Shown here piece after piece: positions 2,056-50,322 of a stretch of 64,000 nt of DNA; within the stretch, counting starts at the first letter, position 1, and each line of letters begins with the position of its first letter. The notes beneath the pieces were generated by a model. It worked only from the letters and a program-made list of their open reading frames with translations, had not been told where the DNA came from and did not search any database. The translations under genes and the position numbers were made by a program. Source of the stretch: an uncultured delta proteobacterium (GTDB lineage: Bacteria; Myxococcota; Myxococcia; Myxococcales; Anaeromyxobacteraceae); the NCBI GenBank assembly GCA_963845515.1, contig CAWJSR010000023.1, positions 160,001 through 224,000 on the forward strand. Direction: 5' to 3'.

Positions 2056-2058
2056 CCT

Positions 2059-2529: not shown

Positions 2530-2533
2530 CCCA

Positions 2534-21617: not shown

Positions 21618-22690
21618 TGGCGGAGCCACTTCACCCCGACACGCACGCGATCCACGCCGACGAAGGGATCGAGCCTGCGTCCGACGTCGCGCCGCCGATC
21701 CACGTCGCGACGACCTTCACGGCGGGCGACCAGGCGGGGACCTTCTACTCACGGATCGACCAGCCGACCCGCCAACGGCTGGAGGCGGTCCTCGGCGCGC
21801 TCGACGGCGGCGACGCCATCACCTACTCGTCTGGGCTCGCGGCGGTGACGGCGGCCATCTCGGTCCTGCGGCCGAAGCGGGTGGCGATCGGCCGCGGGGG
21901 CTACTTCGGCACGCACGGCGCCATCGACGCGTTCGTGCCGTGGGGGGTCGAGAAGGTCCCCCTGGATGCTCCCGTGGGGGAGGGGGACGTCATCTGGTTG
22001 GAGACGCCCCTCAACCCGACCTGTGAGCTGCAGAGCATCGCGGCTCACGCCGCCCGCGCGGCCGCGGCAGGCGCGCGGCTCATCGTCGACGGGACCTTCG
22101 CGACCCCCGTCCTGCAGCGGCCGCTCGACCTCGGGGCAGACCTCGTCCTCCACTCGACGAGCAAGTACCTGTCGGGCCACTCGGACGCCCTGGGCGGCGT
22201 GCTCGTCGCTCGCTCTCACGCCCTCTCGAAGCGGCTGCGGGACGCACGAACGTACGCCGGCTCCGTCCCCGGGACACTGGAGACCTGGCTCACGCTGCGC
22301 GGCGTGCGGACGCTGGGGCTTCGGGTCCGGCACCAGACGGCGACGGCGACCCGGCTGGCGGCCTGGCTGGAGCCGCGCGTGGCGAAGGTCTGGCACCCGT
22401 CGCTCCGCTCCCACCCCCAGCACGACCTGGCCGAGCGACAGATGCGCGGCCCGGGGCCGATGCTGTCGATCGAGCTCGCCGACGAGGAGGCGGCGCGCGA
22501 CCTTCCGCGTCACTTGAAGCTCTTCCGGGACGCGACGTCGCTCGGCGGCGTCGAGTCGCTCATCGAGTGGCGCTACAAGCTCGACAAGGAGGCTCCCCCG
22601 GCGCTGCTCCGCGTGTCGGTGGGGCTGGAGGAGCCGGAGGATCTCATCGCGGACCTGGCCCAGGGGCTCGCGAAGGTGGCCGCGCGATGA
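21617..22690 (+). CDS. Cystathionine gamma-lyase/synthase family PLP enzyme
   Basis: [51 protein letters not shown]. Confidence 0.9.
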
Positions 22691-23715
22691 CGGTCGAGGC
22701 GTCGGTCGTCGTCGGAGAGGGACAGGGGCTCCGCGCCGTGATGGAGCTGGTCGTGCGCGCGGCGCCGGCCGACGTCCCCATCCTCATCACAGGGGAGACG
22801 GGCTCGGGCAAGGAGGTGGTCGCCCGCGCCATCCACGAGCGCTCGTCCCGTGCGGCCGGGCCAATCATCCGGGTCAACTGCGGAGCGATCCCGACCGAGC
22901 TGGTGGACTCGGAGCTCTTCGGCCACGAGAAGGGGAGCTTCACGGGGGCCGTGGCCGCGCGGAAGGGATGGTTCGAGCGAGCCGACTCGGGGACCCTCCT
23001 CCTGGACGAGATCGGCGAGCTGACGCTGGCCGCCCAGGTTCGCCTGCTCCGCGTCCTGCAGGACGGCACCTTCGAGCGCGTCGGCGGGCAGCGGACCCTC
23101 TCCGTGAACGTCAGGATCGTCGCCGCGACCCACCGCGACCTGTCGCTCATGGTCGCGGCGGGCCAGTTCCGCAAGGACCTCTGGTACCGGCTGAGCGTCT
23201 TCCCCATCCACCTGCCGCCGCTGCGGGAGCGGACGGAGGACGTCGGCCCCTTCGCGACCCACTTCGCGGCGCAGGCGGGGACACGGCTCTTCGGCGCGCC
23301 CGTCATCCCGACCGAGGGGGACATCGCACTCCTGCAGGCGCACACGTGGCCCGGGAACGTCCGGGAGCTGGCGGCGGTGATCGAGCGGGCGGCGCTGCTT
23401 GGCGGCGGGCGGTCCCTCGCGATCGCGGCGGCGCTGGAAGGATCGGCGCAGATCGAGGACGTTCCGCGCTCGCCGATGCTGCTGCCGCCGCTGGCGCAGG
23501 CGCCGTCCGCCGCGCGGATCCCCACGCTCGACGAGGCGGTGACGGAGCACATCGAGCGGGCGCTCGCCAGCGTCGGAGGGCGGATCGAGGGGCAGGGCGG
23601 CGCCGCGGAGCTGCTCGGGATCAACCCGCACACGCTCCGGGCCCGCATGAGGAAGCTGGGGATCGACTGGGCTCGCTTCCGGGGTCGTCCCGGGCTTCGC
23701 TCGGTCGGGGGGTGA
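22687..23715 (+). CDS. sigma54-dependent activator lacking an N-terminal sensory domain
   Basis: GETGSGKE, ELFGHEKGSFTGA, LLDEIGE, WPGNVREL, C-terminal HTH. Confidence 0.92.
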   Translation: MTVEASVVVGEGQGLRAVMELVVRAAPADVPILITGETGSGKEVVARAIHERSSRAAGPIIRVNCGAIPTELVDSELFGHEKGSFTGAVAARKGWFERADSGTLLLDEIGELTLAAQVRLLRVLQDGTFERVGGQRTLSVNVRIVAATHRDLSLMVAAGQFRKDLWYRLSVFPIHLPPLRERTEDVGPFATHFAAQAGTRLFGAPVIPTEGDIALLQAHTWPGNVRELAAVIERAALLGGGRSLAIAAALEGSAQIEDVPRSPMLLPPLAQAPSAARIPTLDEAVTEHIERALASVGGRIEGQGGAAELLGINPHTLRARMRKLGIDWARFRGRPGLRSVGG

Positions 23716-24853
23716 CTCCCCCGGCGAGCTGACGCCACGCGAGCCAGCCGAAGAGGGGCGCCAGCAGGAGGAAGACGCCCTGCGTGCCGAGGGCGCGACC
23801 GATCAGGCCGCCGAGCAATCCTCCCACCAGCCCCCCGGACGAGCCCGAGAGCGACTGGAGGCACGAAGCGGCGTCCTGTCCAACGCGGGCGCCGACCCGG
23901 GCGGCCCGGATCAGGTTCTCCATCTGGACGAGGCCGAGCCCAGCGCCGAGCAGGAGGCTCCCCGCCCAGAGCCAAGAGCCGCTTCGCGCCAGCCCGAGCA
24001 GCAGGAGCCCGACGACTGCGGACCCGTAGGCAGCGAAGACGAAGCGGGACCGGTCCCAGCGAGAGGCGAGCCCGCCCATCGTGAGGAGCACGATGACGAA
24101 GCTCGCGGCCTGCGCGCTCAGGAGCCCGGCCGCGGCCGGCGCGCCGAACCCGTGCCGCTGGATCGCGACCGGGATGATGAAGAACGAGAAGCAGGTGAAG
24201 GTCCCCTGGGCTGCGAACTCGGTCGCGGCGAGAGGAAGCGTCTCCGGGTCGGCGCCGGCGATCCTCAGCGCCGCGCCCATCGCGCCCTCCGCCGCCGGCT
24301 GCGCTCCGTCGAGCACGCCCCGCGCCGCCCACGCGGGAAGGACGAAGCTGGCGGCGACGAACCACCACGTGACTGGAAAGCCGAGCGCCGCCACCACGGG
24401 GACGGCGATCGACGGCCCGAGGACGAACATGCTCAGGAGGTGGATGCCGCGGTACCAGCCGGCCCGGGCGTTTCCCTCGAGGGCTAGCCGCTGCATCGTC
24501 ACGACGTTGGTCGAGACGAAGCGGAGCGGCATGCAGAAGCCCACGCCGGTGAAGCACGCGACGAGGAACCAGGGCTGACGCACCAGCGGCACCGCCGCGC
24601 ACGCGAGCCCCCCGAGCAGGCTGCCGCCGATGAAGGCGCTCGCTGGGCCGTGGCGCCGCACCAGCGCGCCGCTCGGCAAGCTCATCAGGACGAGCCCCAG
24701 GCTCTGGCACGCGGCCAGGAGGCCGAGCTCGGTCGGAGAGGAGTGGATCGTGACCGCGTAGAGCGACGTGGCCACCCGCGCCAGCCCCGTGCTGAGCCCC
24801 GCGAGGGCCAGCACCGCCAGGAACGGCGCGATGGGGTCGGCGGCACGCCTCAC
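23621..24853 (-). CDS. MFS transporter (both ends uncertain)
   Basis: About 12 hydrophobic segments, G.LVRRHG loop; 3' end overlaps the convergent activator gene. Confidence 0.8.
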   Translation of the reverse strand: MRRAADPIAPFLAVLALAGLSTGLARVATSLYAVTIHSSPTELGLLAACQSLGLVLMSLPSGALVRRHGPASAFIGGSLLGGLACAAVPLVRQPWFLVACFTGVGFCMPLRFVSTNVVTMQRLALEGNARAGWYRGIHLLSMFVLGPSIAVPVVAALGFPVTWWFVAASFVLPAWAARGVLDGAQPAAEGAMGAALRIAGADPETLPLAATEFAAQGTFTCFSFFIIPVAIQRHGFGAPAAAGLLSAQAASFVIVLLTMGGLASRWDRSRFVFAAYGSAVVGLLLLGLARSGSWLWAGSLLLGAGLGLVQMENLIRAARVGARVGQDAASCLQSLSGSSGGLVGGLLGGLIGRALGTQGVFLLLAPLFGWLAWRQLAGGVTPRPSEARDDPGSEPSRSPASSCGPGACAG

Positions 24854-24863
24854 AGCGACGCGC

Positions 24864-25670
24864 TCACGGGTCGTGCGGGAAGCCGGCGACGACGAAGCCA
24901 CCCCCGGAGACGTCGAGGCGGGTGCCGGTGACGAACGAGGCCTCGTCGGAGAGGAGCCACAGGATCGGCTTCGCCACCTCGTCGGCGGTCGCCGGGCGGT
25001 TGATCGGGATGGTGGCGCTCACCGCAGCGAGCGCGGCCGCGTCCTCGGTGGCGCGACGGGTCATCGCGGTGCGGGTGAACCCGGGGCGCACGACGTTCAC
25101 CCGGATGCCACGCGCCGCGACCTCCTTGGCGAGCCCCACGCTGAACGCGTCCACCGCCGCCTTGGAGGCGGCGTAGGCGGAGGCCCCGGGCCGACCGCCG
25201 ATGGTCGCCGCCATCGAGGAGACGTTGACGATGGCGCCGCCGCCCGCGCGCGCGTCGAACCGCTTCACGGCCTCGCGGCTCGCGATGATGGTGCCGGTGA
25301 CGTTGGTGGCCCAGAGGGCCGCCAGGTCGGCCGCCGCGAAGCTCGAGATCGGGCCGTGCTTCCCGCCGATCCCGGCGCTGTTCACGAGTCCAGCGAGCGC
25401 GCGCCCGGCGAAGCGGGCGTCGACCTCGTCGAAGAGCCGGACGATCTCCTCCTCCTCCGCGACGTCTGCTCCGAAGGCGTGGATCTCGGCGCCCTTGGCG
25501 CGCAGCTCCGAGACGAGCGCCTCGGCCGCGGCGCGCTGGGAGCGGTAGGTGATGGCGACGGGGATGCCGCGGGCGGCGGCGTGGCGCGCCACCGAGGCGC
25601 CGATGCCGCTGGAGCCGCCGGTGACGAGGATGGGACCGGGCGTCGAGCCCTTGCGAGTGCAGTCGGTCAT
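24864..25670 (-). CDS. SDR-family oxidoreductase
   Basis: TGGSSGIG, VNSAG, VNVSS, YAASK, VRPG. Confidence 0.92.
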   Translation of the reverse strand: MTDCTRKGSTPGPILVTGGSSGIGASVARHAAARGIPVAITYRSQRAAAEALVSELRAKGAEIHAFGADVAEEEEIVRLFDEVDARFAGRALAGLVNSAGIGGKHGPISSFAAADLAALWATNVTGTIIASREAVKRFDARAGGGAIVNVSSMAATIGGRPGASAYAASKAAVDAFSVGLAKEVAARGIRVNVVRPGFTRTAMTRRATEDAAALAAVSATIPINRPATADEVAKPILWLLSDEASFVTGTRLDVSGGGFVVAGFPHDP

Positions 25671-25677
25671 GGACGCC

Positions 25678-26997
25678 TCAGACCTGGGGGAACTTCCACT
25701 GGGGGAGCCGGCCGCCGACGGCCTCGCCGGCTGCGATCCGGAAGGCGTCGTGCGTCGGGCTGCTGTTGCCGAGCGCGCCGTAGAGCTGCGCCGTGGTGTA
25801 GCCGTGCTTCGCGAAGATGGCGGCGACCTTCAGCGTCAGGTCGTAGTGCCAGCTGGCCTCGGGCGTGCGGTGCCCCTCCAGCGCCGAGCCCGGGTTCGGG
25901 CACCACTGCCCCGCGAAGCAGATGACCCCCCTCGAGGCGAGGTGCTCGACCCCCTGGAGGATCGAGTCCTTCGGCTCGATCCCGGCCACGATGTTGGAGC
26001 GGACGTTGCCCCGGCCGAACACCTCGGCCGCGCGCTCCAACGCCTTGACCCAGTGGTCCCAGCCGCCGCAGCGCTTCTGCTTGCCCGGGCAGATGGCCTT
26101 GAAGATGTCGCGATCCCAGATCTCCAGGTTCATCGCGAGCGTCGTGTAGCCGGCCTCGCGGTACTTCTCGAGGATCGACAGGTCGAGCGGAGCGCCGATC
26201 ACCGCCGTGCCGTGGATCTGCTTCACGCCGGTCCGCGACTTGATCTCGTCGGCGACGTCCAGGTAGTACTCCACCTCCCGCCGCTCAGGGATGAAGCCGC
26301 CGGTGACGTTGATGTGGTTGGCGAGGTTCAGCTCGTACGCGGCCGCGTAGACCTCGGCCACCTGTCGTGGCGTCTTGAGGAAGATGTTCTGCTTCCGGTA
26401 GGCGTCGGCCGTCGAGTTGATGTTGCAGTATCGGCAGTCGTCGCCTGTCTGCTTCAGGTCGCACTCGTTGCTGAAGAAGACGCCGATGCCCCCCTCCGGC
26501 GTGAAGTTGGCGATGTGGTCGAAGCCCTCGCCATCGCTCGTCTTGAGGTCGAGCAGCTTCGGCCGCTTGTAGAACTCGATGTCGGCGACCCGCTCCCCGT
26601 CCCGGTGGAGGACCGGCTTCCCCGAGTCGGCCTGGAGCCGGTAGCGGGAGTCGGGATCCCAGCGGAACGCGGTGAAGAGCCCGTGGGGCAGGTAGAACGC
26701 TGCCGGCAGCTCGAGGTCGCCGTGGTGCGCCTTGTCCATGTCGAAGAGCAGGTGGATCTGCTCCAGGTTCTCCGTGCCGATCCGGAACTGCCGGAGCGCC
26801 TCGCGGTCGAAGGCGATCCCCTCCACGCCGAGGGCGAGCTTCAGCTTCAGCTCCTCGAGCAGCACGCGCCGGGCGTCCTGCGCCCCGTCGGACGTCACCT
26901 CAGTGGTCTGGGTCTTCTGGCAGCTGGACGTCCCGCTGCAGCCGGTCCGGGCTCGGGCGTTGGCGGCGTTGGGCAGGGTCGTGACTGATTCGGTCAT
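25678..26997 (-). CDS. Radical SAM protein 1 (CX8CX2C, subtype A)
   Basis: NECDLKQTGDDCRYC, TGG, ICPGK, PNPGSALEGHR. Confidence 0.88.
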   Translation of the reverse strand: MTESVTTLPNAANARARTGCSGTSSCQKTQTTEVTSDGAQDARRVLLEELKLKLALGVEGIAFDREALRQFRIGTENLEQIHLLFDMDKAHHGDLELPAAFYLPHGLFTAFRWDPDSRYRLQADSGKPVLHRDGERVADIEFYKRPKLLDLKTSDGEGFDHIANFTPEGGIGVFFSNECDLKQTGDDCRYCNINSTADAYRKQNIFLKTPRQVAEVYAAAYELNLANHINVTGGFIPERREVEYYLDVADEIKSRTGVKQIHGTAVIGAPLDLSILEKYREAGYTTLAMNLEIWDRDIFKAICPGKQKRCGGWDHWVKALERAAEVFGRGNVRSNIVAGIEPKDSILQGVEHLASRGVICFAGQWCPNPGSALEGHRTPEASWHYDLTLKVAAIFAKHGYTTAQLYGALGNSSPTHDAFRIAAGEAVGGRLPQWKFPQV

Positions 26998-27028
26998 GGC
27001 GTTCTCCGTTCGAGGTTGGGTGGGGGGG

Positions 27029-28273
27029 CTAGGCCGGGGCGGGCTGGGCCGCCGCCTGCTTCGCCTTGCAGCACGGCCTGGCGGTCCGCTCCTCGCGCGG
27101 CAGGAAGGCGCGCCCCTCCTCGATCCTGTAGATGTCGTGGACGAGGGTCAGAGGGGCGGCGTTGGCGTCGTAGATCTGGTCCCACGTGTAGCCGGCCTTC
27201 CGGTAGATCTCGGCCGTCTGCTTCGCGACATCGAGGTGCCACGCCGGCTCGGGTGCGCGGTGCCCTTCGAGCGCCGAGCCGGGGTTGGGGAACCAGTTTG
27301 GCGAGATCGCCAGGATCCCCTTGGACGTGAGGTGCTCGATCCCCTCCAGCGTAGAGGCCTTGCTCTCGAGGCCGCCCACCATGTTGGAGCGCACGCGGCC
27401 GCGGCCGAAGACGTCTACCGCGCGCTCCAGCGCGTTGATCCAGTGCTTCTGGCCACCGCAGAGCTGGTCCTTGCCGGGGCAGTAGGCCCGGAAGAAGTGC
27501 TCGTTCCAGACCTCGATGTTGATCGCGAGCGTCCTGAACCCGACCTCCCTGTACTTCTCGATGATGGAGAGGTCCTGCGGCGCGCCGATGCAGGCGGTGC
27601 CGTTGAAGTCGGTCAGCCCGGTGTGCTCCTTGATGCTCTCGGCGACGTCCAGGTAGTAGTCCACCTCGCGCCGCTCCGGCACGAAGCCGCCGCTGATGGT
27701 GACGTGGCGCGCGCCGTCGGCGTACGCCGCCGCGACCGTCTCACCGATCTGGCGCGGGTACTTCCACTTCACCCCCTCGGCGTCGCCGTAGGTGTCCCGG
27801 GTCGCGTTGATGTTGCAGAAGAGGCAGTCCTTGCCGGTGGACTTGAGCGAGCACTCGTTGCTGTACGCCACGAAGACGACACCGTCGGTGTTGTTCACCG
27901 CGACCGTCTTCATGGCCGTCCCGTCAGAGGTCTTCTTCGCGTAGTAGGCTGGCCGCTTCACGAAGTCGACCGGGATGGACTCTCCGTCCCGGCGGACGAC
28001 GAAGTACTGCGTCCCGTCGCGCTCGAGCCTGTTGGCGGAGCGGCGCGTGTAGTTGAAGAGCGTGACGAGCCCGTTCGGCAGGACGAGGTAAGGGGGCAGC
28101 TCGAGCCCGACGTGCGTGTCGGTGTCGTACTCGAAGAGGCAGTGAACCTGCTCCTGGAGCCTCCCGCCCACGTCGAGCCCCTCGAAGATCCTGGGGTCGA
28201 AGTTGATCCCCTCCTGGCCGAGCTCGGCCTTCAGCTGGAGCTCGCGGTACAGCACGTCCTTGTCGGCAGCCAT
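27029..28273 (-). CDS. Radical SAM protein 2 (CX8CX2C, subtype B)
   Basis: NECSLKSTGKDCLFC, SGG, YCPGK, PNPGSALEGHR. Confidence 0.88.
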   Translation of the reverse strand: MAADKDVLYRELQLKAELGQEGINFDPRIFEGLDVGGRLQEQVHCLFEYDTDTHVGLELPPYLVLPNGLVTLFNYTRRSANRLERDGTQYFVVRRDGESIPVDFVKRPAYYAKKTSDGTAMKTVAVNNTDGVVFVAYSNECSLKSTGKDCLFCNINATRDTYGDAEGVKWKYPRQIGETVAAAYADGARHVTISGGFVPERREVDYYLDVAESIKEHTGLTDFNGTACIGAPQDLSIIEKYREVGFRTLAINIEVWNEHFFRAYCPGKDQLCGGQKHWINALERAVDVFGRGRVRSNMVGGLESKASTLEGIEHLTSKGILAISPNWFPNPGSALEGHRAPEPAWHLDVAKQTAEIYRKAGYTWDQIYDANAAPLTLVHDIYRIEEGRAFLPREERTARPCCKAKQAAAQPAPA

Positions 28274-28288
28274 CGGTGCAACTCCTGT

Positions 28289-29722
28289 TCAGGTGTGGGG
28301 CAGCTGGAGCGGGGTTCTTGAGGGAGGGATCGAGAGGGCACAGCCCGAAGCAGGACGGCGAGCGGTGCCAGCAGCCGGCTCGAGCGTCTCCTGGCGCGGT
28401 TCGGCGCGGCTCGTCGCCGCTGCCCGCTCCCGCCGGACGGCGCCGAGCAGCTCCTCCACGAGCGTCACCGCGCCGTCGACTCCGGCGAAGCTGCGGCGAA
28501 GGACCGGGACCGCGTGGACGGGGGCAGCCGTCTCCACGAGGGCGGCGCCGAGGCCGCGGGCGGCGTAATGCTCGAGCGCGCTGCCCAGGATGAGCTCCGG
28601 GCCCGAAGCGGCGAGCGCGCGGGCGATCTCCTGCCGGCTCTCGAGGAACTGGACGTCGACCCCGCCCCCCGCGATCGCGCGGATCGAGGCGGCGATGGAC
28701 GCGTGGCGCTGCGCCGGAGGGCGATCGGTGACGATCACCTGCTCGACCAGCTGTCCCAGCGTCCCGGAGAGGAAGCGGGCCTGGCCGACTGCCGCGGCGG
28801 TCCCGCCCACCACTGCGATCCGCTCCTGGACGTCTCCGAGCAGGAGGCTGGGCGCGGCCTTCTTGAGGAAGTGGCGCAGGCGCGAGTCCAGGCGCGCCCG
28901 GGCGGCATCGACGGTCCTTCCGTCGAGCGAGAGCGCCTCGGCCACCTTCTCCACGAGGAGCGCGGCGTCGCGGCTCCCGACCGGCAGGAACCCGAGGTCC
29001 ACGACCGGCGTGCCATGGCGATCGGCGAGCAGCCGCGCAGCCTCGAGCCCCCACGGCGAGAGCACGACGTTGACGCGCGCGAGGGGCGCCTGGCGCCAGG
29101 CAGCGGTCCCCTGGCCGAGGCCGACCAGCCGGTTCGACCGGAGGCCGAGCTCGGCCAGGATCCCCTCGACCGCCAGGAGGTCCCCCTCCCAACCCGGATC
29201 GCGGCCTGGGACCACTCCCAGCAGGTTCACGTCGGGCCTGTCGCCGCCAGCCTCTGGAGCCAGGATCGACGGGAGCTGCTCGAGGAGCGCGCGCGCGGTG
29301 GAGGCGTAGCCCGTCCAGCCGTTCCCCTTGAAGCCGGGGGCGGCGATCCCGAGGACCGGGAAGCGCTGCTCGGTCGCCTCCTTCACCATCGCGGGCACGT
29401 CGTCCCCGACCACCTCGGGGACGCAGCCGGTGACGACGACGTAGAGGTCGCCAGTGAGCACCTTCAGGGTGTTCTTGATCTGCTCCCGCAGGCGCGAGGT
29501 GCCGCCGAAGACGACCTGCTTCTCGTGCAGGACCGTCGCGCTCGTCTCGCCAGACGAGGAGGCGAGCTGGCCGAGGCCGCCGGCGAAGGCGTCGCCGGAG
29601 ACCCGAGCCGCGACGGCGCACCCGGCGCTGGCGTGGAGGATCGGCACCACGCCGCCGACGGCCTCGAGCAGGCGGAGCGCGCCGTGGAGGGCGCAGCCAT
29701 TCCGGTCTTCGTGCAGGGCCAT
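28289..29722 (-). CDS. Nitrogenase component 1-like beta (K/N-like) subunit
   Basis: GCALHGA, HASAGC, EKQVVFGG..RL, TGCVPEVVGDD. Confidence 0.88.
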   Translation of the reverse strand: MALHEDRNGCALHGALRLLEAVGGVVPILHASAGCAVAARVSGDAFAGGLGQLASSSGETSATVLHEKQVVFGGTSRLREQIKNTLKVLTGDLYVVVTGCVPEVVGDDVPAMVKEATEQRFPVLGIAAPGFKGNGWTGYASTARALLEQLPSILAPEAGGDRPDVNLLGVVPGRDPGWEGDLLAVEGILAELGLRSNRLVGLGQGTAAWRQAPLARVNVVLSPWGLEAARLLADRHGTPVVDLGFLPVGSRDAALLVEKVAEALSLDGRTVDAARARLDSRLRHFLKKAAPSLLLGDVQERIAVVGGTAAAVGQARFLSGTLGQLVEQVIVTDRPPAQRHASIAASIRAIAGGGVDVQFLESRQEIARALAASGPELILGSALEHYAARGLGAALVETAAPVHAVPVLRRSFAGVDGAVTLVEELLGAVRRERAAATSRAEPRQETLEPAAGTARRPASGCALSIPPSRTPLQLPHT

Positions 29723-29724
29723 GC

Positions 29725-31128
29725 CTACTTCACCTCGTGCTTGATGAACCAGTGGGTGCTCTTTCCGAGCCAGCCGGGCTGGTAGAGCGGGGCGTCCTCC
29801 TCCGCGAGGAAGCGCGCGAAGGACGGATGGGCGAGCCGGCGCGAGACCGCGGCGGCGAAGCGCTCCGCGCCCGCGTAGCCGAGGATTGGAACGGCCTGGA
29901 GATCCAGCACGGGTATCCCGAGCCGGAGCGCGTGGACTGCGGCGCTGCCGCTGCCGACGTAGAGATCCGGCTTCAGCGACGCGAGGAGGTTCACCTCCTC
30001 GAAGGCCTGCCCCTCGCCGACGAGAACGCGGAGCCCCGGGTTGGCCGCGGCCAGCGCCTCCAGCGGCGAGGCGTGGCGGGCCGAGACCGTCGTGAGCCCG
30101 ATGCCGGCGAGGCCCAGGCCCAGCTCACCGATCAGCTCGGCGACCCCAAGGGCCTGCTGCGGTGGAAGGCTGACGAAGATCCGTGCTCCAGCGTGGGGCG
30201 CCGTCCGCTCTAGCGCGCCGGCGAGCCGGCGCGCGTGGCGCGTGGCCACCTCGGCGGCCTGCACCGCGCGGCCGGTCGCTTCGCCTACGGCCGCCAACCA
30301 GCGGGTCGTCCCGACGAAGCCGATGGGAGGGGGCGGAGCGAGGTAGGGAACTCCCCGCAGCCGCCGCAGCGCCTCGCCGGCGTACTCGGCCTCGTCGGGA
30401 TCGATGGAGATCGAGAGGCGAGAGGAGGCCACGCGCCCAAGCTCGGAGACGCGCGCCGACCGGGGGAAGAGGACGCTGTCGATGCCGACCTCTCCCAGGA
30501 GCGCCCTGAGCGCGTGGGTCTCCTCGGCCCCCTCGGCGATCGAGAGGAGGGTGACGTGGTCGCCCGCGCTCCCGTGGCGCCCAGGCAGCAGGTGGGACGC
30601 GAGGGCGTGGACGGCCACGTCGTGTCCGGTCGCGGCGACCTTGGAGCGGAACCCGTCGGCGAAGACCGGAAAGACCGGGATCCCCAGCTCGTCGCGCAGC
30701 TCGATGGTCGCCGAGAGGATGTCGTCGTTGTTGATGGCGACCACGGGCGTGGCGACGACCGCGATCGCGCGCGGCGACCGGGTCGCGAAGAGCCCCCGGA
30801 TCGCGTCGTGCAGCTTGTCGTCTCCCCCCATGATCGAGTCGCGCTGGTCGAGCCCCGTCACGACCCACGGTGCGCTCGCTCCCTCCGCGTGCAGGCTGGC
30901 GGCGCAGCCTGCAGGTCCGTCGACCACGATCCCGAGCCCGTCGACCGACCGGAGCAGCGAGAGCGCCCGCTGCACGTCGCTGGGCGTGTCCTGGCTGAAC
31001 GTCCGGACCCGCTGGGCGAGCGGGCCGGCGGCCGCGTCGCGGGCGAGCGCCTCGACGGTGCCGGAGAAGGCGGCGATGACCCCGGTGCGCTTCTCACGGA
31101 TCGGGGCGGTGCGCTGAAGGCTCGACAT
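29725..31128 (-). CDS. Nitrogenase component 1-like alpha (D/E-like) subunit with degenerate ligands
   Basis: IREKR, RTFSQ, GPAGC, IMGG..KL, GFRSK, PIG; only one Cys in the protein. Confidence 0.85.
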   Translation of the reverse strand: MSSLQRTAPIREKRTGVIAAFSGTVEALARDAAAGPLAQRVRTFSQDTPSDVQRALSLLRSVDGLGIVVDGPAGCAASLHAEGASAPWVVTGLDQRDSIMGGDDKLHDAIRGLFATRSPRAIAVVATPVVAINNDDILSATIELRDELGIPVFPVFADGFRSKVAATGHDVAVHALASHLLPGRHGSAGDHVTLLSIAEGAEETHALRALLGEVGIDSVLFPRSARVSELGRVASSRLSISIDPDEAEYAGEALRRLRGVPYLAPPPPIGFVGTTRWLAAVGEATGRAVQAAEVATRHARRLAGALERTAPHAGARIFVSLPPQQALGVAELIGELGLGLAGIGLTTVSARHASPLEALAAANPGLRVLVGEGQAFEEVNLLASLKPDLYVGSGSAAVHALRLGIPVLDLQAVPILGYAGAERFAAAVSRRLAHPSFARFLAEEDAPLYQPGWLGKSTHWFIKHEVK

Positions 31129-31143
31129 GGCGGCGCGCCTCCC

Positions 31144-32016
31144 TCAGATCCCGGCCTGTGCCGAGACGACGCCCTGCTCGCTCTCGAGCACGAGGCTGCC
31201 CCACTTCCTGGCCCACGCTCGGAGGTCGTTTACGGCGAGCGGCTTGGGGATGACCGCCGACCGGTCCTCCAGGACCGTCCTGGCGAGCTGCCGGTAGACG
31301 TCGGCCTGCGCCGACGTCGGGCTCGCCTCGATCACCGTCTGCCCATACAGCTCGGCCTGCGCGACGGTCGTCGAGCGCGGGACGTACTGGATCGCCCGCG
31401 TCCCCGTCGTCGCGGCGAAGTCGTCGATGAGCGAGCGGGCGTACGGCGCCACGAGCGAGTTGGCGATGATCCCGCCGAGCTTGGCGCCGCCCGACGGGGC
31501 GTACTTGTTGATGGCGCGGAAGAGGTTGTTGGCGGCGTAGATCGACATGAAGTCCGAGGACGACACGACGTAGACGCGGTCTGTGAGCCCCTCCCGGATC
31601 GGGACGGCGAAGCCGCCGCACACCACGTCGCCGAGGACGTCGTAGAGGACGACGTCCGGCTTGAACTCCTCGAAGAGGTGCAGCTCGCGGAGCAGCTCGA
31701 TCGCTGCGTTGATGCCGCGCCCCGCGCAGCCGACGCCGGGGACCGGACCGCCCGCCTCGATGCAGAGGACGCCGGAGAAGCCGACCGCAGAGACGTCGGA
31801 GAGCTTCACCTGGGAGCCGTCCCGCGTGGCGTCGAGGACGCTGGGGAGGTAGGCGCCCCCGCGAAGGGTGTTGGTCGAGTCGCTCTTCGGATCGCACCCG
31901 ATCTGGATGACCCGGCTCCCGCCCTCGGCGAGGGCGGCGGCGAGGTTCGAGGTGGTGGTGGACTTGCCGATGCCACCCTTTCCATAGACGGCGATGTGCT
32001 GGGGCCTGTGGCTCAT
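31144..32016 (-). CDS. NifH-like Fe protein
   Basis: [47 protein letters not shown]. Confidence 0.93.
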
Positions 32017-32026
32017 GTGGGTGCGC

Positions 32027-32824
32027 TCAGATCTGGTATTCGATGGTGGGGTCGGAGACGGTGAAGAACTCGCCGTAGATCTTCTTGCGGACGGCGGCGA
32101 AGGCGCCGTCGCTGCGATCGCGCGGGCGAGACAGGTTCACGTCGACGAAGCGGCGTACGGTCCCGGGGCGGCTCGACATGATCGCCACCCGGTCGCCCAG
32201 GAAGACCGCCTCGTCGATGTCGTGCGTCACGAGGATCACGGTCGACCGCTCGGCCTCCCAGATGCGCAGCAGCTCCTGCTGCATCTGGATCTTCGTGAGG
32301 GCGTCCAGCGCGCCGAAGGGCTCGTCGAGGAGCAGCACGCGAGGCTTGTTGACGAGGACCCGCGCGATGGCCGCGCGCTGGGCCATGCCACCAGAGAGCT
32401 GGTGCGGGTAGGCCTTCTCGAAGCCGGCGAGCCCGACCAGGCGGAGCGCATCGGCCACGCGCTCCCGCGCCTCGGCCTTCGGCACCCTGGAGAGGGCGAA
32501 CGCGACGTTCCGCTCCACGGTGAGCCAGGGGAGCAGCCGGCTGTCCTGGAACATGATGCCGCGCTGGAGCGACGGACCGGCGATCGGCGCCCCGTCGACG
32601 GTGACGGAGCCGGTGTCATTCCGCTCGAGCCCGGCGACGATGCGCAGGAAGGTGCTCTTGCCGCACCCACTGCCGCCGATGATCGAGAGGAACTCGCCGG
32701 GGCGGACGTCGACGTTCACGCCCTCGAGGGCGACGACCTCGGCGCCGTTGGCGTTGAAGCGCTTGCCGATGCCGGTCGCCCGGATCGGCGGTGCGGGTTG
32801 CGCGACTGCGTTGGAGTGGCTCAT
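32027..32824 (-). CDS. SsuB/TauB-type ABC ATP-binding protein
   Basis: [38 protein letters not shown]. Confidence 0.92.
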
Positions 32825-32851
32825 GGCGATGGCTTCCGGTCTCCTGGTTGG

Positions 32852-33649
32852 TCAGCTCTCGGCCTGCTGGTGGGATGGTCGCCAGCGGAGGACGTGCCGC
32901 TCGACGAGCCCGATCGCGGTGTTCAGCCCGAAGCCGATCGCGCCGATGACGAAGATCCCGACGATCACCATGTCCATCCGTCCGAGCGACCGCCCCTCGA
33001 TGAGGACGCTGCCGACGCCGGGCGTGATCTGCAGGAAGAACTCCGAGCCGAAGGTCGCGAGCCACGAGGTGACGAGGGCGAGGTGAAGCCCGACCAGGAT
33101 CTGCGGCGCCGCGGAGGGGATGACGACCGACAGGACGAACCGGGCGCGTCCGACCTCCAGCACGCGGGCGAGCTCGCGGTGCTCCGGAGCGAGCGAACGG
33201 ACGCCGACGAAGGTGTTGAAGATCACCGGCGCGACGGAGGCGACGGCGATGAAGGCGATCTTGCAGGAGTCGCCCCCGCCGAACCAGGCCGAGATGAGCG
33301 GGATCCAGGCGAAGACGGCGACCTGGCGCCAGGCGTGGAAGGTGGGGCCGACGAGCCGATCCGCCCAGCGCGAGACGCCCAGCAGCACGCCGAGGGCGAG
33401 CCCCACGGCGACCGCGATGCCGAAGCCGGCGAAGGTCCGGACGAGGCTGGAGCCGACGGCGACCCAGAACCCGGAGTCGAGCAGGTGCTCGCGGGCGGTC
33501 GCGAGGACGACGGCCGGCGACGGCAGCAGGTTGGGGTCCACGCGCGCCAGCCGGGTCGCGGTGAACCAGGCGAGCAGGAGGGACGCGGGCAGCACGAGCC
33601 CGCGCAGCTGGCCCAGGGAGCGGCGGGAGAGAGCGATCGGGACGGTCAT
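32852..33649 (-). CDS. SsuC/TauC-type ABC permease
   Basis: LLPSP..V, AWIPLISAWFG.G, VVIPSAAP. Confidence 0.88.
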   Translation of the reverse strand: MTVPIALSRRSLGQLRGLVLPASLLLAWFTATRLARVDPNLLPSPAVVLATAREHLLDSGFWVAVGSSLVRTFAGFGIAVAVGLALGVLLGVSRWADRLVGPTFHAWRQVAVFAWIPLISAWFGGGDSCKIAFIAVASVAPVIFNTFVGVRSLAPEHRELARVLEVGRARFVLSVVIPSAAPQILVGLHLALVTSWLATFGSEFFLQITPGVGSVLIEGRSLGRMDMVIVGIFVIGAIGFGLNTAIGLVERHVLRWRPSHQQAES

Positions 33650-33661
33650 GGCCGTGCCTTC

Positions 33662-34552
33662 CTAGAACGCGTCGCGCTGCCAGAGCCGCAAGCGGCGCTC
33701 GGCCGCGCTCAGCACCAGGTCGAGGGCCAGGCCGACCACGCCGATCACGACGATGGCCGCGATCACAACGTCGAGCTGGAAGAGCTGGCGCCCCCAGACC
33801 ACCATGAAGCCGACCCCCTCGCTCGAGGCGACCAGCTCGACCACCACGAGGGACATCCACGCGGCGCCGAGCCCGCCGCGCAGACCGGTGAAGAGCGAGG
33901 GGAGGGCGGCCGGAATCGCGATCTTCCAGATGACCTCGTGGCGCCTGAGCTGGTGGACGCGGGCGAGCTCGAACCACTTGGCCGGGATGCCCGCGATCCC
34001 CTTGGCCGTGTTGACCGTCACGGGGAGGGCCGCGGAGTAGGTGATCGCTGCGGTCTTGAGCGGCTCGTCGATCCCGAAGAGGAGGATCAGCAGCGGGATC
34101 CAGGCCATGACGTTGACCTGGTAGACGGCGAAGACGGTCGGCTGCACGTAGCTCCGGAACGAGGACGAGAGGCCGAACGCCGCGCCCAGGGCGAGCCCGA
34201 TGGCAGCGCCGATCCCGAACCCCTTCGCGACGCGGACGGCGCTGACGCTCAGGTTGGAGAGGATCGTCCCGTCGCCCCAGAGCTCACGGAGCGTCTGCCA
34301 GACGACCGCAGGCGGCGGTAGGATCAGCGGTGAGACCCACTCGCGGTCCGCGACGAGCTGCCAGAGCGCGAGGAGGGTCGCAGGGAGGATCGCGGCCGCC
34401 AGCACGGTGCCCGCGCGGGCGACGGCCGGCCTGCGGAGCGTCACGGCGACGCGCCGCAGGACTCTGGAGAGCCGGTTCTCTCGGGGAGCCCCTGCGGCGC
34501 GGGGTCCGAACTCCCCGTTCAGCAACAGCCCGGCAGCGGCATCGGTTTCCAT
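33662..34552 (-). CDS. SsuC/TauC-type ABC permease
   Basis: ILPPP..V, AWIPLLILLFGIDE, PAALPSLFTGLR, VVELVASSEG. Confidence 0.9.
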   Translation of the reverse strand: METDAAAGLLLNGEFGPRAAGAPRENRLSRVLRRVAVTLRRPAVARAGTVLAAAILPATLLALWQLVADREWVSPLILPPPAVVWQTLRELWGDGTILSNLSVSAVRVAKGFGIGAAIGLALGAAFGLSSSFRSYVQPTVFAVYQVNVMAWIPLLILLFGIDEPLKTAAITYSAALPVTVNTAKGIAGIPAKWFELARVHQLRRHEVIWKIAIPAALPSLFTGLRGGLGAAWMSLVVVELVASSEGVGFMVVWGRQLFQLDVVIAAIVVIGVVGLALDLVLSAAERRLRLWQRDAF

Positions 34553-34574
34553 CGGTCCCTCTCTCTTTGGTCCT

Positions 34575-35652
34575 CTAGCGGCTGACGACGGTGGGGTGGC
34601 TCGGCCTGAACTCGGTGTCCTGCTCGTGCCACAGGTGTTCGAGCCCGAGCGTCTTGAGCCCCTGAACCAGGAAGGAAGGGTCGATCCACTTGTCGACGTC
34701 GAAGTCCTTCCGGATCAGCTTGAGCTCGCGCCCCTTCTGGAGGAGCCGCTTGTAGTGAGCGCGGTAGAAGGCGTCGAAGAGGGGGGACGCCCGCTCCCGG
34801 AGGACGAAGGCGTCCCAGTCGCCCTTCCAGGCCGGCAGCCCGAAGCCGCTCTTGGTCCAGACCTGGTAGGCGCGGGCGCGGCTCGACTCCTCGGCGAGCC
34901 ACGCCGCGTCCTTCAGGACGACGTTCACCACGCGCTGCACCAGCTGCGGGTACTTCGCCGCGAAGGGCTCGGTGACGAGCAGGTGGGTGAGGCGGCCCGA
35001 TCTCGGATCGCCCTGTGTCGAATGCACGATCCGAGCGACTCCCCGCTCTACGAGCGGGAAGACGTCGGGGCCTGAGACCTGCGCGTCGATGGCCTTCGAC
35101 AGCAGGGCGGCGTTGCCGTCGAGGACCGACATGTTGACGAGCTTGAAGTCGCTCTCCTTGAGCCCTCTCGAAGCCAGGACGCTGTAGAAGGCGAGCTGAA
35201 GGTTGGTCCCCTTGAAGACCGCGACCCGCTTTCCCTTCAGGTCCTCCAGCGTCCTGGCGGTAGAGTCGGCGGGGACGTTGACGTAGATGGCGATCGAAGC
35301 GGCTGGCCGCCAGGATGAGCCTGGTCGGGAGCCCACCGCCCCTCGCGACGAGCGCCGGCAGATCACCCTGGAAGGCGAAGTCGAGCTGGCCGTTGGCGAG
35401 CGCCTCGTTGACCGCCGGTCCCGCGCCGGAGAAGTAGGTCCACTTCACGGGTATCCCGTCGGGGCGGAACTCGTTCTCGAGGGAGGCGTTGTCGGCCACG
35501 ATCGAGACGAAGGACCAGCCGGAGACGGGGCGACCGCCCGTGCCTACCTGGGCGACGCCGATGCGGATGGCCTCCGGCCGGGGCTCGGCTGCCGTGGCCG
35601 AGGACGCCAGCGACAAGAGCGAGAGGACGACTGCTGCGAGCTGGTTCTTCAT
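34575..35652 (-). CDS. SsuA-like sulfonate-binding protein with apparent frameshift at ~35292
   Basis: N part MKNQ..IRIG..W..F.GAGPAVNEALANGQLDF..GDLP; C part DLKGKRVAVFKGTN in another frame. Confidence 0.82.
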
Positions 35653-35669
35653 TGACGATTCTCCCCGGC

Positions 35670-37124
35670 CTAGAAGCCGAACTGGAGCTGCGCGAGGACT
35701 TCTGTGGATGCGACGTCTTCCGCGCCGCCGACGTGCTGGATGCGTCGATTGACGTTCAGCTGCGCCTTGGTGGTCTCGGCGAAGAAGACGTTGAGACCGG
35801 CGGTGTAGAGCTCGTTTGCGGTTCCTGGTGCCTTTGCGTCGGGCTCCCAGCGGTCGTAGCGGACGAACGGCTGCCAGGTCTTCGGCCACCAGTCGTCGAA
35901 CTTGGCCTGGGTCTTGATGCTCCGGAGGAACTGCTCGCCGAAGCTGTAGAAGGCGGTGGCGGTGTGACCGTTCCTGTCGAACCGGGCTTCCCTCGCAGTG
36001 GCCGCGATCCAGACGTCGTCGACCGCGCGAACGAACTCGTAGGTGAAACCGAGCGGAAAGTGGTTGTAGTAGACGTCGACGCCGTACCGGTTCCTGAGGC
36101 CAGTCGCTACGAGCGCGGGAGTGGCAGGAGCTACGGCCCCGTCGCTGAGCGACGCGCGGCCGAGGTAGGCCGACGCGCCGATCCGCAGCTCGCGGAGCCA
36201 TGAGTTGTAGTCGGCGGGCAGGGTGATCGCGACGCGTCCGACCACGTCCTTGAAGGCGTTGTCGTCGTCGCGGTTCGGCCCGGTGCCGTTGACTACGCCG
36301 AGAGCGAAGGCCAGCAGCGCCTGGCGGTAGTTGTAGCCGAAGTCGAACTGCGTGAAGAACTCGCCGCGAGCGATGAGTCCGATCTGGCGCGCGCCGAGGC
36401 CGGCCTGCACCACGAACTGTGCATTGTTGATGACCGGCTTCAGCTCCTCCGTCGTGTTGCTCTCCAGCCCGAAAGGCACGAGCTGCTGTCCGAGCGTGAG
36501 CGAGAGGCGCGGGCCGTCGTTCTCGATGGTGGGGAGCAGCTGGTAGGTCAGGTTCGCGTCTAGGATGCTGAGGTAATTGAAGTTGGTGCCTGCCGCGGGG
36601 GAGGCGGCGGCGCTGAGCGTGAAGCCGACGTTCCGCGCCTGCTCGTAGTCCCGGTACAGGAGCCCGTTGAAGGCCAGGATCGCCGCGGGGATGTCGAACG
36701 TGGTCTTCCGGTTGTCCAGGAGCGCCGGGTTGTTGACCGAGGTGCTCGCGACGTTCTTGTTCAGTGGCGAGCTGATGAAGGCGCCGTAGTACGCGCCGCG
36801 GGCCTGGACGATCCCGCTGATGAGCAGGTTGCGGGTGGAGAGCGCGCTCTTGGTCTCGCGATCCCGCTGGTACTGGTACTTGAAGTTCTCGAGGTCGGCC
36901 TGGACGCCCTGGACGTCGCCGCGGGAGGCGGCCTCCGCTCCCGCCGATTCGAGCCGGGCCCTCAGCTCGGCCAGCTCCTTCTCGAGCGTCACGAGCGCGT
37001 CGTCGCTCACAGCGGCGGTGGGCGCCGCGCGCTGCTCACCGGCGGCAGACTGGGGCTGGGCGCCGGCCTGCGTTCCGGCCATCAGGAGCGTCAGGGTCAG
37101 CAGTGCTCTGTGGGTCACGTTCAC
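35670..37124 (-). CDS. Outer-membrane porin (OprO/P-like) with N-terminal coiled coil
   Basis: Signal peptide, GQQLVPFGLE, GVVNGTG.N..DDN, PFVRYD, C-terminal QLQFGF; start approximate. Confidence 0.75.
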   Translation of the reverse strand: MNVTHRALLTLTLLMAGTQAGAQPQSAAGEQRAAPTAAVSDDALVTLEKELAELRARLESAGAEAASRGDVQGVQADLENFKYQYQRDRETKSALSTRNLLISGIVQARGAYYGAFISSPLNKNVASTSVNNPALLDNRKTTFDIPAAILAFNGLLYRDYEQARNVGFTLSAAASPAAGTNFNYLSILDANLTYQLLPTIENDGPRLSLTLGQQLVPFGLESNTTEELKPVINNAQFVVQAGLGARQIGLIARGEFFTQFDFGYNYRQALLAFALGVVNGTGPNRDDDNAFKDVVGRVAITLPADYNSWLRELRIGASAYLGRASLSDGAVAPATPALVATGLRNRYGVDVYYNHFPLGFTYEFVRAVDDVWIAATAREARFDRNGHTATAFYSFGEQFLRSIKTQAKFDDWWPKTWQPFVRYDRWEPDAKAPGTANELYTAGLNVFFAETTKAQLNVNRRIQHVGGAEDVASTEVLAQLQFGF

Positions 37125-37153
37125 CTTCCCGCGTGAGGAGTTCCCCGGCACTA

Positions 37154-37170
37154 CTGCAAGGCGCGTGCGC
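37154..37170 (-). promoter_or_regulatory. sigma54-like element (non-canonical)
   Basis: GCGCACG-cgcc-TTGCAG on the minus strand upstream of the porin; same pattern at 43841-43857. Confidence 0.5.
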
Positions 37171-37255
37171 AGCGCCTCCAACATCGCGGATGAGGCCGCC
37201 GATCGCGTCGGGACGGGGCGCGCCCTGCCCTGCCTCGGATCAGTCCGCGTGGAAA

Positions 37256-37269
37256 TCCGTAATAACGGA
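37256..37269. promoter_or_regulatory. 14-bp sulfur box
   Basis: TCCGTAATAACGGA, flanked A..T. Confidence 0.8.
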
Positions 37270-37455
37270 TGCCGTCTTGGGCCTCCCGCGGTCGGTCGCC
37301 GCCCGGCCCGGTCCTCGTCGCCCGCGTCTTCCCCAGGCGGCGCGGATCGCTGGCGGCAGCGTGCGCGCTGGCCCCCGCCACGGCGCCTCCCCGGGTGCGC
37401 CACGGGCCGCCAGCGCCAGGCACGGCGACGCGCCTCTTGGCGCCTGAGAAGCACT

Positions 37456-37532: not shown

Positions 37533-37547
37533 TCGTGGGCTAGCGCC

Positions 37548-40499: not shown

Positions 40500-40574
40500 G
40501 GACGGCGACGCCTTCGCCCGGGAGCGGCCCGGCGGTGTCGAGCGAGATGGCCACGGGGTCCCGGTCCGATGCCG

Positions 40575-43775: not shown

Positions 43776-43840
43776 GTCCGGCTCTTTCGCGGTCCGCGAC
43801 GAAGTGACGGCGCGGTTCGTGGTGCGTGAGGGGCGGGAGT

Positions 43841-46546: not shown

Positions 46547-46549
46547 GCG

Positions 46550-47522: not shown

Positions 47523-47553
47523 TTGACCGGACCGAGCGTCCGTTATATAGGAT
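47523..47553 (+). promoter_or_regulatory. sigma70 promoter with sulfur box over the -10
   Basis: TTGACC 47523-47528; TCCGTTATATAGGA 47539-47552. Confidence 0.78.
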
Positions 47554-47560
47554 GCCGGTC

Positions 47561-49296: not shown

Positions 49297-49316
49297 CGCC
49301 CCTCAGGAGGAGCACC

Positions 49317-50321: not shown

Positions 50322-50322
50322 C

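Follow-up and report, generated by a model that had tools for sequence, protein, structure and literature searches.

A nitrogenase-like operon, probably of the IsrBHDK type, with multiple IsrB-family radical SAM genes in a sulfur island of an Anaeromyxobacteraceae genome

Gene content of the operon

The DNA analyzed here, called the window, is a 64,000-nt stretch (contig CAWJSR010000023.1, positions 160,001–224,000 of the forward strand) of assembly GCA_963845515.1 from an uncultured member of the Anaeromyxobacteraceae. It carries a minus-strand gene set that combines nitrogenase-like H, D, and K proteins with radical S-adenosylmethionine (SAM) proteins and a sulfonate-type ATP-binding cassette (ABC) importer. 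An earlier note made from the sequence described one tightly packed operon in the order porin-SsuA-SsuC-SsuC-SsuB-H-D-K-radical SAM-radical SAM-short-chain dehydrogenase/reductase (SDR)-major facilitator superfamily (MFS) transporter, and proposed that it encodes an O2-independent route of C–S cleavage. Coordinates are window positions unless a contig is named, and the features are collected in Table 1. The window is ~71% G+C with many spurious open reading frames, and coding frames were picked by third-position G+C. Pfam and NCBIfam searches gave a family match for each of the 12 minus-strand genes from 37118 to 23621, which confirms the gene order described earlier. The intergenic spacings range from −38 to 31 nt, making a single operon the natural reading. 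The upstream edge had been placed at 37270, which is the end of a palindrome; the porin gene starts with GTG at 37118.

The porin is 60–85% identical across the Anaeromyxobacteraceae loci. The SDR is kept at 71–79% identity in four Anaeromyxobacteraceae loci and at 54% in two Chlorobiaceae loci, and it is generic by its NCBIfam and PDB matches. An assignment of the SDR as a sulfonate enzyme was rejected: TsaC, a 4-formylbenzenesulfonate dehydrogenase, is among the 60 PDB chains listed but ranks level with many FabG-like chains, and no sulfonate-related enzyme is near the top of those 60.

The ssuA reading frame is broken near 35291 in the window. It is intact across the break point in 5/5 Anaeromyxobacteraceae relatives, and a 2304-nt contig from run X1, a run containing 73% of the sampled words, has one base fewer at 35291 and restores the frame, although one contig at a depth of ~5 is weak evidence. 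Run X1 may be the source sample; runs X2–X4 span only parts of the ssuA region, and no RNA run is listed as carrying the stretch. The intact relatives and the X1 contig indicate that the frameshift is probably a consensus or assembly error rather than the mark of a pseudogene.

Table 1. Features of the operon and its surroundings (window positions)
Feature	Position	Strand	Evidence and remarks
OprO/P-family anion porin, signal peptide	35670..37118	-	PF07396, 29.9 bits (cut-off 20.9)
SsuA-family periplasmic binding protein, two frames in window	34575..35652	-	NCBIfam; extra base near 35291
SsuC/TauC-type ABC permease 1	33662..34552	-	Pfam/NCBIfam family matches
SsuC/TauC-type ABC permease 2	32852..33649	-	Pfam/NCBIfam family matches
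SsuB/TauB-type ABC ATPase	32027..32824	-	Pfam/NCBIfam family matches
IsrH-like Fe protein	31144..32016	-	PF00142, 315 bits; P-loop GKGGIGKS, Cys97, Cys133
IsrD-like subunit, sole cysteine Cys75	29725..31128	-	PF00148, alignment, tree
IsrK-like subunit, Cys10/Cys35/Cys100	28289..29722	-	PF00148, alignment with NifK
Radical SAM protein rB	27029..28273	-	NF045502, 457 bits; CSLKSTGKDCLFC; downstream-of-K type of Anaeromyxobacteraceae
Radical SAM protein rA	25678..26997	-	NF045502, 432 bits; CDLKQTGDDCRYC
SDR oxidoreductase, classical	24864..25670	-	Pfam/NCBIfam/PDB matches
MFS transporter, last gene of operon	23621..24901	-	Pfam
16-bp perfect palindrome ATCCGTTATTACGGAT, candidate operator/activator site	37255..37270		Conservation upstream of porin gene
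-24/-12-like element GCGCACG-N4-TTGCA	37155..37170	-	~95 nt downstream of palindrome, ~40 nt before porin start
Radical SAM protein rC	37548..38795	-	NF045502, 437 bits; outside the interval of the earlier note
MFS-PNPOx fusion (38820-40499), two HgdB/double-cubane-like subunits (40575-43000), HgdC/BcrAD-type activase (42882-43776)	38820..43776	-	Directly upstream of rC
Second metK	44135..45283	+	Followed by rD at 45287
Radical SAM protein rD	45287..46546	+	NF045502; directly after second metK
Radical SAM protein rE, divergent IsrB superfamily	47552..48832	+	NF045502
rE with second SsuA-family binding protein, ABC ATPase, and permease	47552..51963	+	Pfam/NCBIfam
Sigma-54 enhancer-binding protein (AAA+ and HTH_8)	22567..23715	+	Convergent with operon end
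CysO/thiocarboxylate-type cysteine synthesis set: ThiF-rhodanese, DUF4395, PALP enzyme, JAB/Mec-like protease	892-4697		

Cluster ligands and phylogeny of the HDK proteins

The D-like and K-like proteins of the operon match PF00148 with 189 and 208 bits. D was aligned with labeled NifD, AnfD, NifE, BchN, BchY, and Mar-like D sequences. Its Cys75, the single cysteine of the entire protein, lies at the 'GPxGC' cysteine of NifD (Cys88 column). Pro128 occupies the NifD Cys154 column, Asp243 occupies the column of the FeMo-co ligand Cys275, and there is a gap at the His442 column. The three K cysteines align with the three NifK P-cluster cysteines, the first with an offset of one column. The P-loop of H begins at residue 12, and the protein scores 369.5 bits on the nifH model, under the cut-off of 394. 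The published Isr proteins of Rhodobacter capsulatus have a single Cys74 in IsrD, Cys12/37/99 in IsrK, and Cys99/135 in IsrH, and they are devoid of FeMo-co ligands (Morimoto et al. 2024, PMC11423573). By the criteria of that study, the cysteine pattern of the window's D, K, and H is the IsrHDK signature.

The assembly comprises 4.74 Mb in 58 contigs and is 88% complete, which sets the scope of the genome-wide absences. The earlier note had remarked on the lack of nifB, nifEN, ssuD, and tauD in the window. In the whole assembly, nifB was not found, the only two PF00148 genes are D and K of the operon, and nothing scored above the cut-off for SsuD; one TauD-family gene is located on another contig (C28). 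With two PF00148 genes and no nifB, the operon does not belong to a nitrogenase, DPOR, COR, or Mar complement. A nitrogenase of the Nif, Vnf, or Anf type was rejected on these grounds, on the missing P-cluster and FeMo-co ligands, and on the score of the nifD model (50.8 bits; cut-off 653). The best scores on DPOR/COR/CfbCD-type models were 90.5 bits for BchB (cut-off 490) and 30.9 bits for CfbD (cut-off 268).

Phylogenetic analysis separates D and K from the other nitrogenase-like families represented. The D/K tree was a quick IQ-TREE analysis of 37 rows with SH-aLRT support only, and it contains neither R. capsulatus nor CfbD sequences. Its references were the PF00148 genes of Rhodopseudomonas infernalis and Anaeromyxobacter oryzae, named by NCBIfam equivalogs as NifD, NifK, NifE, NifN/NifEN, AnfD, AnfK, BchN, BchB, BchY, and BchZ; the unnamed rest are Mar-like and Isr-like pairs. 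The window D falls into a clade of 18 sequences (support 99) together with the D proteins of Rhodopseudomonas palustris, R. infernalis, and Rhodomicrobium vannielii. This Isr-like clade has Mar-like D as its sister (support 84), and NifD/AnfD/NifE (support 100) and BchN/BchY are placed elsewhere. The window K groups with A. oryzae K (support 100) and with the Isr-like K of R. infernalis (support 92). D and K both sort with the Isr-like sequences, apart from Nif, Mar-like, and BchN/Y/B/Z proteins, in a tree that holds no Cfb reference.

The clade that contains the window proteins already carries the Isr label in the literature: under 'Isr', Table S9 of PMC11423573 has entries for R. capsulatus SB1003 (B, WP_013067946.1; H, WP_013067945.1; D, WP_013067944.1; K, WP_013067943.1), R. 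palustris CGA009, R. vannielii, and A. oryzae, the last with two B proteins. The single PF00148 pair of A. oryzae outside nif lies in the locus numbered L004 in our survey, and L004 of strain Red232 is syntenic with the window over porin-binding protein-permease-permease-ATPase-H-D-K-radical SAM-SDR-MFS (H, 86% identity; D, 66%; K, 71%; rB, 82%; SDR, 79%). The two loci also share a sigma-54 activator and metK as neighbors. They differ in rA, which sits between rB and the SDR gene in the window and is shared in this position only with locus L058, and in the rC-type copy, which is downstream of the MFS gene and in the same direction in A. oryzae but upstream of the porin gene in the window. A. 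oryzae also has nifDK and nifEN, whereas the window genome has none. The A. oryzae locus appears in Table S9 and is not discussed in the main text of PMC11423573, as far as the portions of the paper at hand extend. The nearest homolog of the window D is 93% identical and comes from an Anaeromyxobacteraceae metagenome-assembled genome.

The resemblance to the R. capsulatus SB1003 IsrBHDK and SsuCAB system (PMC11423573) extends beyond the NifH-like Fe protein, the one-cysteine D, the three-cysteine K, and the missing FeMo-co ligands. Each system has an IsrB-type radical SAM protein that is not NifB, is linked to an Ssu-type ABC importer, and has sulfur-assimilation genes around it, and the window D and K share their clade with species listed as Isr in that paper. 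R. capsulatus has B-H-D-K and a separate ssuCAB; the window has porin-ssuA-C-C-B-H-D-K-B-B-SDR-MFS, with two permease genes, a porin, five IsrB-family paralogs, and a second metK. Passages of a 2026 review place Isr in nitrogenase-like Group IV-F (PMC13474568), and the up-regulation of IsrHDK in R. palustris when sulfate is limiting is reported in portions of a 2026 preprint (10.64898/2026.08.20.746119).

Several observations weigh against equating the operon with Isr. The window D is only 36–44% identical to alphaproteobacterial IsrD. It belongs to a distinct, well supported subclade (96/100), and the Anaeromyxobacter D group forms a subclade of its own (support 100) apart from the alphaproteobacterial and Firmicutes subclades; Group IV-F subclades may differ in function given their sequence divergence, according to passages of the 2026 Chem Rev review (PMC13474568). 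The connection to R. capsulatus Isr, the only genetically tested enzyme, runs through intermediate sequences and the table in PMC11423573, and in vitro reconstitution of the Isr reaction has yet to be achieved, by the account of that paper and the passages of the review (PMC11423573, PMC13474568). The gene order is unlike isrBHDK, the organism is known from its assembly alone, and the binding-protein gene is frameshifted in the window, although it reads intact in the X1 contig.

On balance, we conclude with good confidence that the operon is the core of an IsrBHDK-type (Group IV-F nitrogenase-like) system for anaerobic assimilation of sulfonate sulfur in Anaeromyxobacteraceae. The locus adds a member to the Isr family, set apart mainly by its five copies of the radical SAM partner, and is not a new kind of system or enzyme class. 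The earlier proposal of O2-independent C–S cleavage by an ATP-driven HDK, radical SAM proteins, and an Ssu importer fits everything that was tested, but the machinery is that of the published IsrBHDK and SsuCAB rather than a separate system. Signatures, tree, and Table S9 make the proteins largely orthologs of that system at the family level; the gene order and the number of radical SAM copies differ.

IsrB-family radical SAM proteins and alternative readings

All five genes of the genome that match NF045502 ('variant_rSAM', cut-off 125 bits) fall in the window beside one HDK set (5/5; PF00148, 2/2). The CX8CX2C motif is present in 5/5. Proteins rA–rD are 42–58% identical to one another, and rE is 25–30% identical to the others. 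The other matches of rA and rB (CofH, MqnC, and BioB models) are remote, and no nifB match was found among the five. Five Rhodopseudomonas loci have the order radical SAM-H-D-K, as in isrBHDK, and their radical SAM protein is 51–52% identical to rB. R. capsulatus IsrB resembles NifB in the radical SAM motif only, and its closest Swiss-Prot relative is BciD (PMC11423573).

The relationships among the copies were determined from a tree of 94 members (89 from 80 loci and the window five; quick search) in which R. capsulatus IsrB was not compared. The copy rC pairs with the distal A. oryzae copy (support 100; 79% identity to this ortholog), and the pair joins the upstream-of-H copies of Rhodopseudomonas and Rhodopila (support 94). 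This grouping makes rC the closest of the five to alphaproteobacterial IsrB. The copy rB groups with the downstream-of-K copies of Anaeromyxobacteraceae (support 99). The copy rA pairs with the L058 copy (support 96), and rA, rD, and the upstream-of-H copies of Chloroflexales form a group of seven (support 100). The copy rE is in a distant clade (support 100). The earlier note had described a pair of CX8CX2C radical SAM proteins; both are present and carry the motif, but alphaproteobacterial IsrB is nearest to the third copy, rC, and three further copies of this family are found beyond the interval that it covered.

The CX8CX2C motif is found in 91/94 members; the exceptions are one truncated row, one row without the motif, and one CX10CX2C-like row. 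There are four near-invariant cysteines, the CX8CX2C triad and Cys265 in a YCPGK motif, and with only these four the family has no ligand set for an auxiliary cluster. The AlphaFold2 model of rB has a pLDDT of 92.3 (43-row alignment), and its best PDB folds are HydE, lipoyl synthase (LipA), PylB, BioB, HydG, and ThiH, with TM scores of 0.41–0.44 (query-normalized) over ~240 columns. The N-terminal ~130 residues of rB are outside the PDB fold matches. No PDB chain matched by sequence.

Three side observations concern this gene family. In the same-genus genome G205 (locus L121), rD and a HAD hydrolase gene are missing between metK and rE, and rD is a long branch beside rA in the tree; the rD region looks like a recent duplication or insertion. 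The IsrB-family genes of L013 (3207-4604), L044, and L065 contain an internal stop or continue into the adjacent open reading frame as extracted, and these are possible pseudogenes or sequence errors. Myxococcota genomes G040, G267, G165, and G271 have high NF045502 scores and no IsrD, and were considered as carriers of an HDK-independent IsrB; their proteins have only 26–35% identity to the window copies and no sulfonate context and were set aside as a different subfamily.

The arrangement of the copies was surveyed across 80 Isr loci, among which related genomes are not independent samples. Of the 46 loci flanked by 8 kb or more on each side, 2 have no radical SAM copy, 30 have one, 12 have two, and 2 have three. 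Neighbors were scored by tblastn with probes taken from the window itself, which miss divergent transporters. Among the 89 copies, 45 are within 600 nt of a transporter gene and 30 are beside H/D/K (6 both), and 20 are near neither. A metK homolog is within 10 kb of IsrD in 43/80 loci: 38/48 in Bacillota, 4/5 in Myxococcota, 1/1 in Spirochaetota, 0/14 in Pseudomonadota, and 0/12 in others. The words 'paralog', 'copies', 'synthetase', and 'metK' are absent from the main text of PMC11423573. IsrD-level matches (>600 bits) were found in only three of 301 Myxococcota genomes, the source genome (G000), G205, and G287. The module of rE, binding protein, ATPase, and permease is kept in two further Anaeromyxobacteraceae genomes, G210 (L118; rE, 84%; binding protein, 81%) and G251 (L119; 76% and 64%), where the best IsrD-profile matches of 101 and 87 bits are at the level of nif-type genes. 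From this gene neighborhood, an rE-type radical SAM protein with an Ssu-like importer is a possible HDK-independent module.

These patterns bear on what the IsrB-family proteins do. A reading that stays within the same enzyme family, and that we rate as a serious contender at somewhat less than even chances, is that each radical SAM protein and its neighboring transporter handle a different organosulfonate, with one HDK serving all. Five IsrB paralogs of the stated divergence accompany a single HDK and belong to four distinct clades, and every one of these clades has relatives from other phyla. Adjacency to a transporter (45/89) exceeds adjacency to H/D/K (30/89), 14/46 of the fully flanked loci have two or three copies, Table S9 lists up to six B proteins per HDK (PMC11423573), and the window D has its own subclade. 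On the other side, the paralogs could be redundant or differently regulated, and the adjacency was scored with the window's own proteins in genomes that are partly related.

A less favored reading, which we consider unlikely, is that the radical SAM proteins serve as maturases, assembling or inserting the metal cluster or cofactor of IsrDK as NifB does, and do not act on the sulfonate. R. capsulatus cannot do without IsrB, whose name was chosen by analogy to NifB, and both roles are left open in PMC11423573. The four near-invariant cysteines offer no ligands for an auxiliary cluster, no sequence relative was found in the PDB, and the closest folds are small-molecule radical SAM enzymes (HydE, LipA, PylB, BioB, and ThiH) and not NifB. 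The DK proteins have no ligands for a complex cofactor, divergent paralogs and transporter adjacency are hard to explain by maturation, and two genomes that have no IsrD-level match still keep the rE-type module. We infer that a catalytic, substrate-specific role in which SAM is consumed fits better than a NifB-like maturase role, because paralogs stand beside one HDK and next to transporters, a dedicated metK is present, auxiliary-cluster ligands are missing, and the rE module occurs without IsrD.

Two readings would take the operon out of the Isr family. It is very improbable that HDK is a thioether (methylthio-alkane) reductase of the Mar type or some other enzyme with a nitrogenase cofactor: Mar-like D is the sister group and both systems serve sulfur acquisition, but the window D has neither the three P-cluster cysteines nor the cofactor-column cysteine kept by Mar-like D, a nifB/marB-like gene was not found in the genome, the radical SAM proteins belong to an unrelated family, and the transporter is of the Ssu/Tau type. 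Least credible of all is a tetrapyrrole or cofactor biosynthesis reductase (DPOR/COR/CfbCD-like) with a BciD-like tailoring radical SAM enzyme, which has the Swiss-Prot kinship of IsrB to BciD (PMC11423573) and the weak matches to BchB/BchN/CfbD models in its favor, but those matches are far under the cut-offs, D and K are apart from BchN/Y/B/Z in the tree, the genome has no other PF00148 genes, and the operon is joined to a sulfonate-type importer inside a sulfur island.

Sulfur island, regulation, and a proposed route for sulfonate sulfur

The Isr-type operon sits in a sulfur island that covers most of the window. In addition to the CysO-type set, the 1–12 kb region holds cysD, cysN, a cysTW-type permease, cysA, and a sulfate-type binding protein gene (sbp), and the 18–23 kb region holds a cystathionine beta-synthase-like gene, a serine hydrolase gene, and a cystathionine gamma-lyase/synthase-type gene. 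A sulfite reductase gene is located 1–2 kb before the window (C23:157673-158953). The sigma-54 activator gene is a conserved neighbor (68–72% identity in L004, L008, and L061; 40% in L058). The HgdB-like subunits score 237 bits on a double-cubane reductase model with a cut-off of 350, and the activase/HgdB-like/MFS-PNPOx set, which is kept in the same-genus genome (L121) and found in 0/80 other Isr loci, is a second ATP-driven low-potential system of the island. The genome has two metK genes, the other on contig C43. A HAD hydrolase gene follows rD within 45287-47421 (+). The segment at 50242-51963 (+) is one long open reading frame with the N-terminal part of an ABC ATPase (residues 61–145) and a permease domain (residues 400–564), and it may be a fusion or another assembly frame error.

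Mercury methylation genes lie beside the sulfur island, at 15345-16714 (−) with 16711-18002 (−). The hgcA gene matches the NF040863 equivalog with 402 bits (cut-off 275). An hgcB-like 2x[4Fe-4S] ferredoxin with a cysteine-rich tail comes after hgcA, and genes for a SAM-dependent methyltransferase and an ArsR-family regulator precede the hgcA/hgcB-like genes on the same strand.

Candidate regulatory elements precede the operon. The 'sulfur box' of the earlier note corresponds to the perfect palindrome that ends at 37270. Sites of the form RTCCGY-N4-ACGGAY precede the porin operon (37255), the sulfate-binding protein gene (10888 and 10955), and rE (47517); others are in the divergent activase-metK region (43961 and 44036) and at 20518, 53705, and 4806. 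The count of palindromes in the window with up to two mismatches is not significant (4 compared to 1.69 expected; 9/100 shuffles reach 4). The palindrome upstream of the porin gene is kept in 4/5 Anaeromyxobacteraceae loci, namely L003, L004 (one mismatch), L008, and L061, but not L058. Its weight comes from the intergenic positions and the conservation, not from the count.

The −24/−12-like element between the palindrome and the porin gene is conserved in four relatives, L058 has a canonical TGGCAC-N5-TTGC in its place, and a second exact copy of the core precedes the activase operon (43842-43857). The usual sigma-54 −24 element has a GG, and the −24 element of the window is without it. The canonical sigma-54 pattern (up to two mismatches) gave 22 matches in the window, fewer than in shuffles (mean 38); the proposal of a sigma-54 promoter comes only from the conservation of the element across relatives. 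These elements point to a possible sigma-54-type promoter with an atypical −24 element and the palindrome as an activator site, and sulfur limitation may control the operon through the palindrome and the sigma-54 activator. A sigma-70 promoter scan of the window found no site, and the number of terminator-like sites was that expected by chance. Rfam gave no match in the window at gathering scores and only a chance-level chrB-a hit in the leader (36800-37700); these scans show no SAM riboswitch.

The gene content suggests a route for sulfonate sulfur. An anionic sulfonate, which would be isethionate or a close analog in the source organism, would cross the outer membrane through the OprO/P-type porin, be bound by the SsuA-like protein, and be brought in by the ABC importer with its two permeases and one ATPase. 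IsrH, as an ATP-dependent [4Fe-4S] Fe protein, would deliver electrons to IsrDK, which is predicted to hold one inter-subunit [4Fe-4S] cluster on one D and three K cysteines and no cofactor like the P-cluster or FeMo-co. IsrHDK and one or more IsrB-family proteins would then release sulfite in the cytoplasm. The sulfite reductase encoded shortly before the window would reduce this sulfite, which would feed into the island's cysteine-synthesis genes. Genetic experiments in R. capsulatus support the release of sulfite and show that B, H, DK, and SsuCAB are essential (PMC11423573). Hallmarks of the IsrBHDK system are its requirement in anaerobic growth with isethionate as the only source of sulfur and its induction in the absence of sulfate. 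The carbon product ethanol is a proposal for Isr in that paper and in the passages of the 2026 review (PMC11423573, PMC13474568). Processing of the carbon product by the SDR and its export by the MFS transporter are guesses. SDR-type sulfoacetaldehyde reductases exist, and the SDR could reduce an aldehyde product or convert sulfoacetaldehyde to isethionate.

The proposed route can be compared to two other anaerobic systems. MarBHDK (Group IV-C) is likewise an ATP-driven nitrogenase-like enzyme that cleaves C–S bonds anaerobically for sulfur and is the sister in the D and K trees, but it keeps P-cluster/L-cluster ligands and the NifB-like MarB, which are absent in the window genome. The glycyl-radical isethionate sulfite-lyase IslAB also releases the sulfite of isethionate under O2-free conditions and has an activase of the radical SAM type, but the protein families are unrelated; a search of the window genome (assembly 88% complete) for a Gly_radical domain found none. 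IslAB complements a DK deletion in R. capsulatus (PMC11423573).

A more far-reaching proposal, which we put forward tentatively and consider a good deal less likely than not, is that the IsrB-family proteins and not IsrDK are the substrate-specific C–S cleavers. SAM would be their co-substrate, IsrHDK a shared ATP-driven low-potential reductase for several of them, and rE with its own Ssu-like importer a minimal version free of nitrogenase-like proteins. A dedicated MetK would make sense if SAM is consumed in this way.

Isr is among the very few O2-independent routes known to turn sulfonate sulfur into an assimilable form (PMC11423573 and passages of PMC13474568). The window adds five IsrB genes with one HDK, an island metK, a palindrome that recurs before several island operons, and a radical SAM-importer module in genomes without IsrD. 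The divergent IsrB paralogs per HDK, the adjacency of radical SAM genes to transporters above that to HDK, and the metK gene within 10 kb in over half of the loci offer ways to tell a catalytic IsrB from a maturase, and A. oryzae is a cultured relative for such work. If the radical SAM proteins are the catalysts, the island would be a modular, multi-substrate platform for anaerobic desulfonation.

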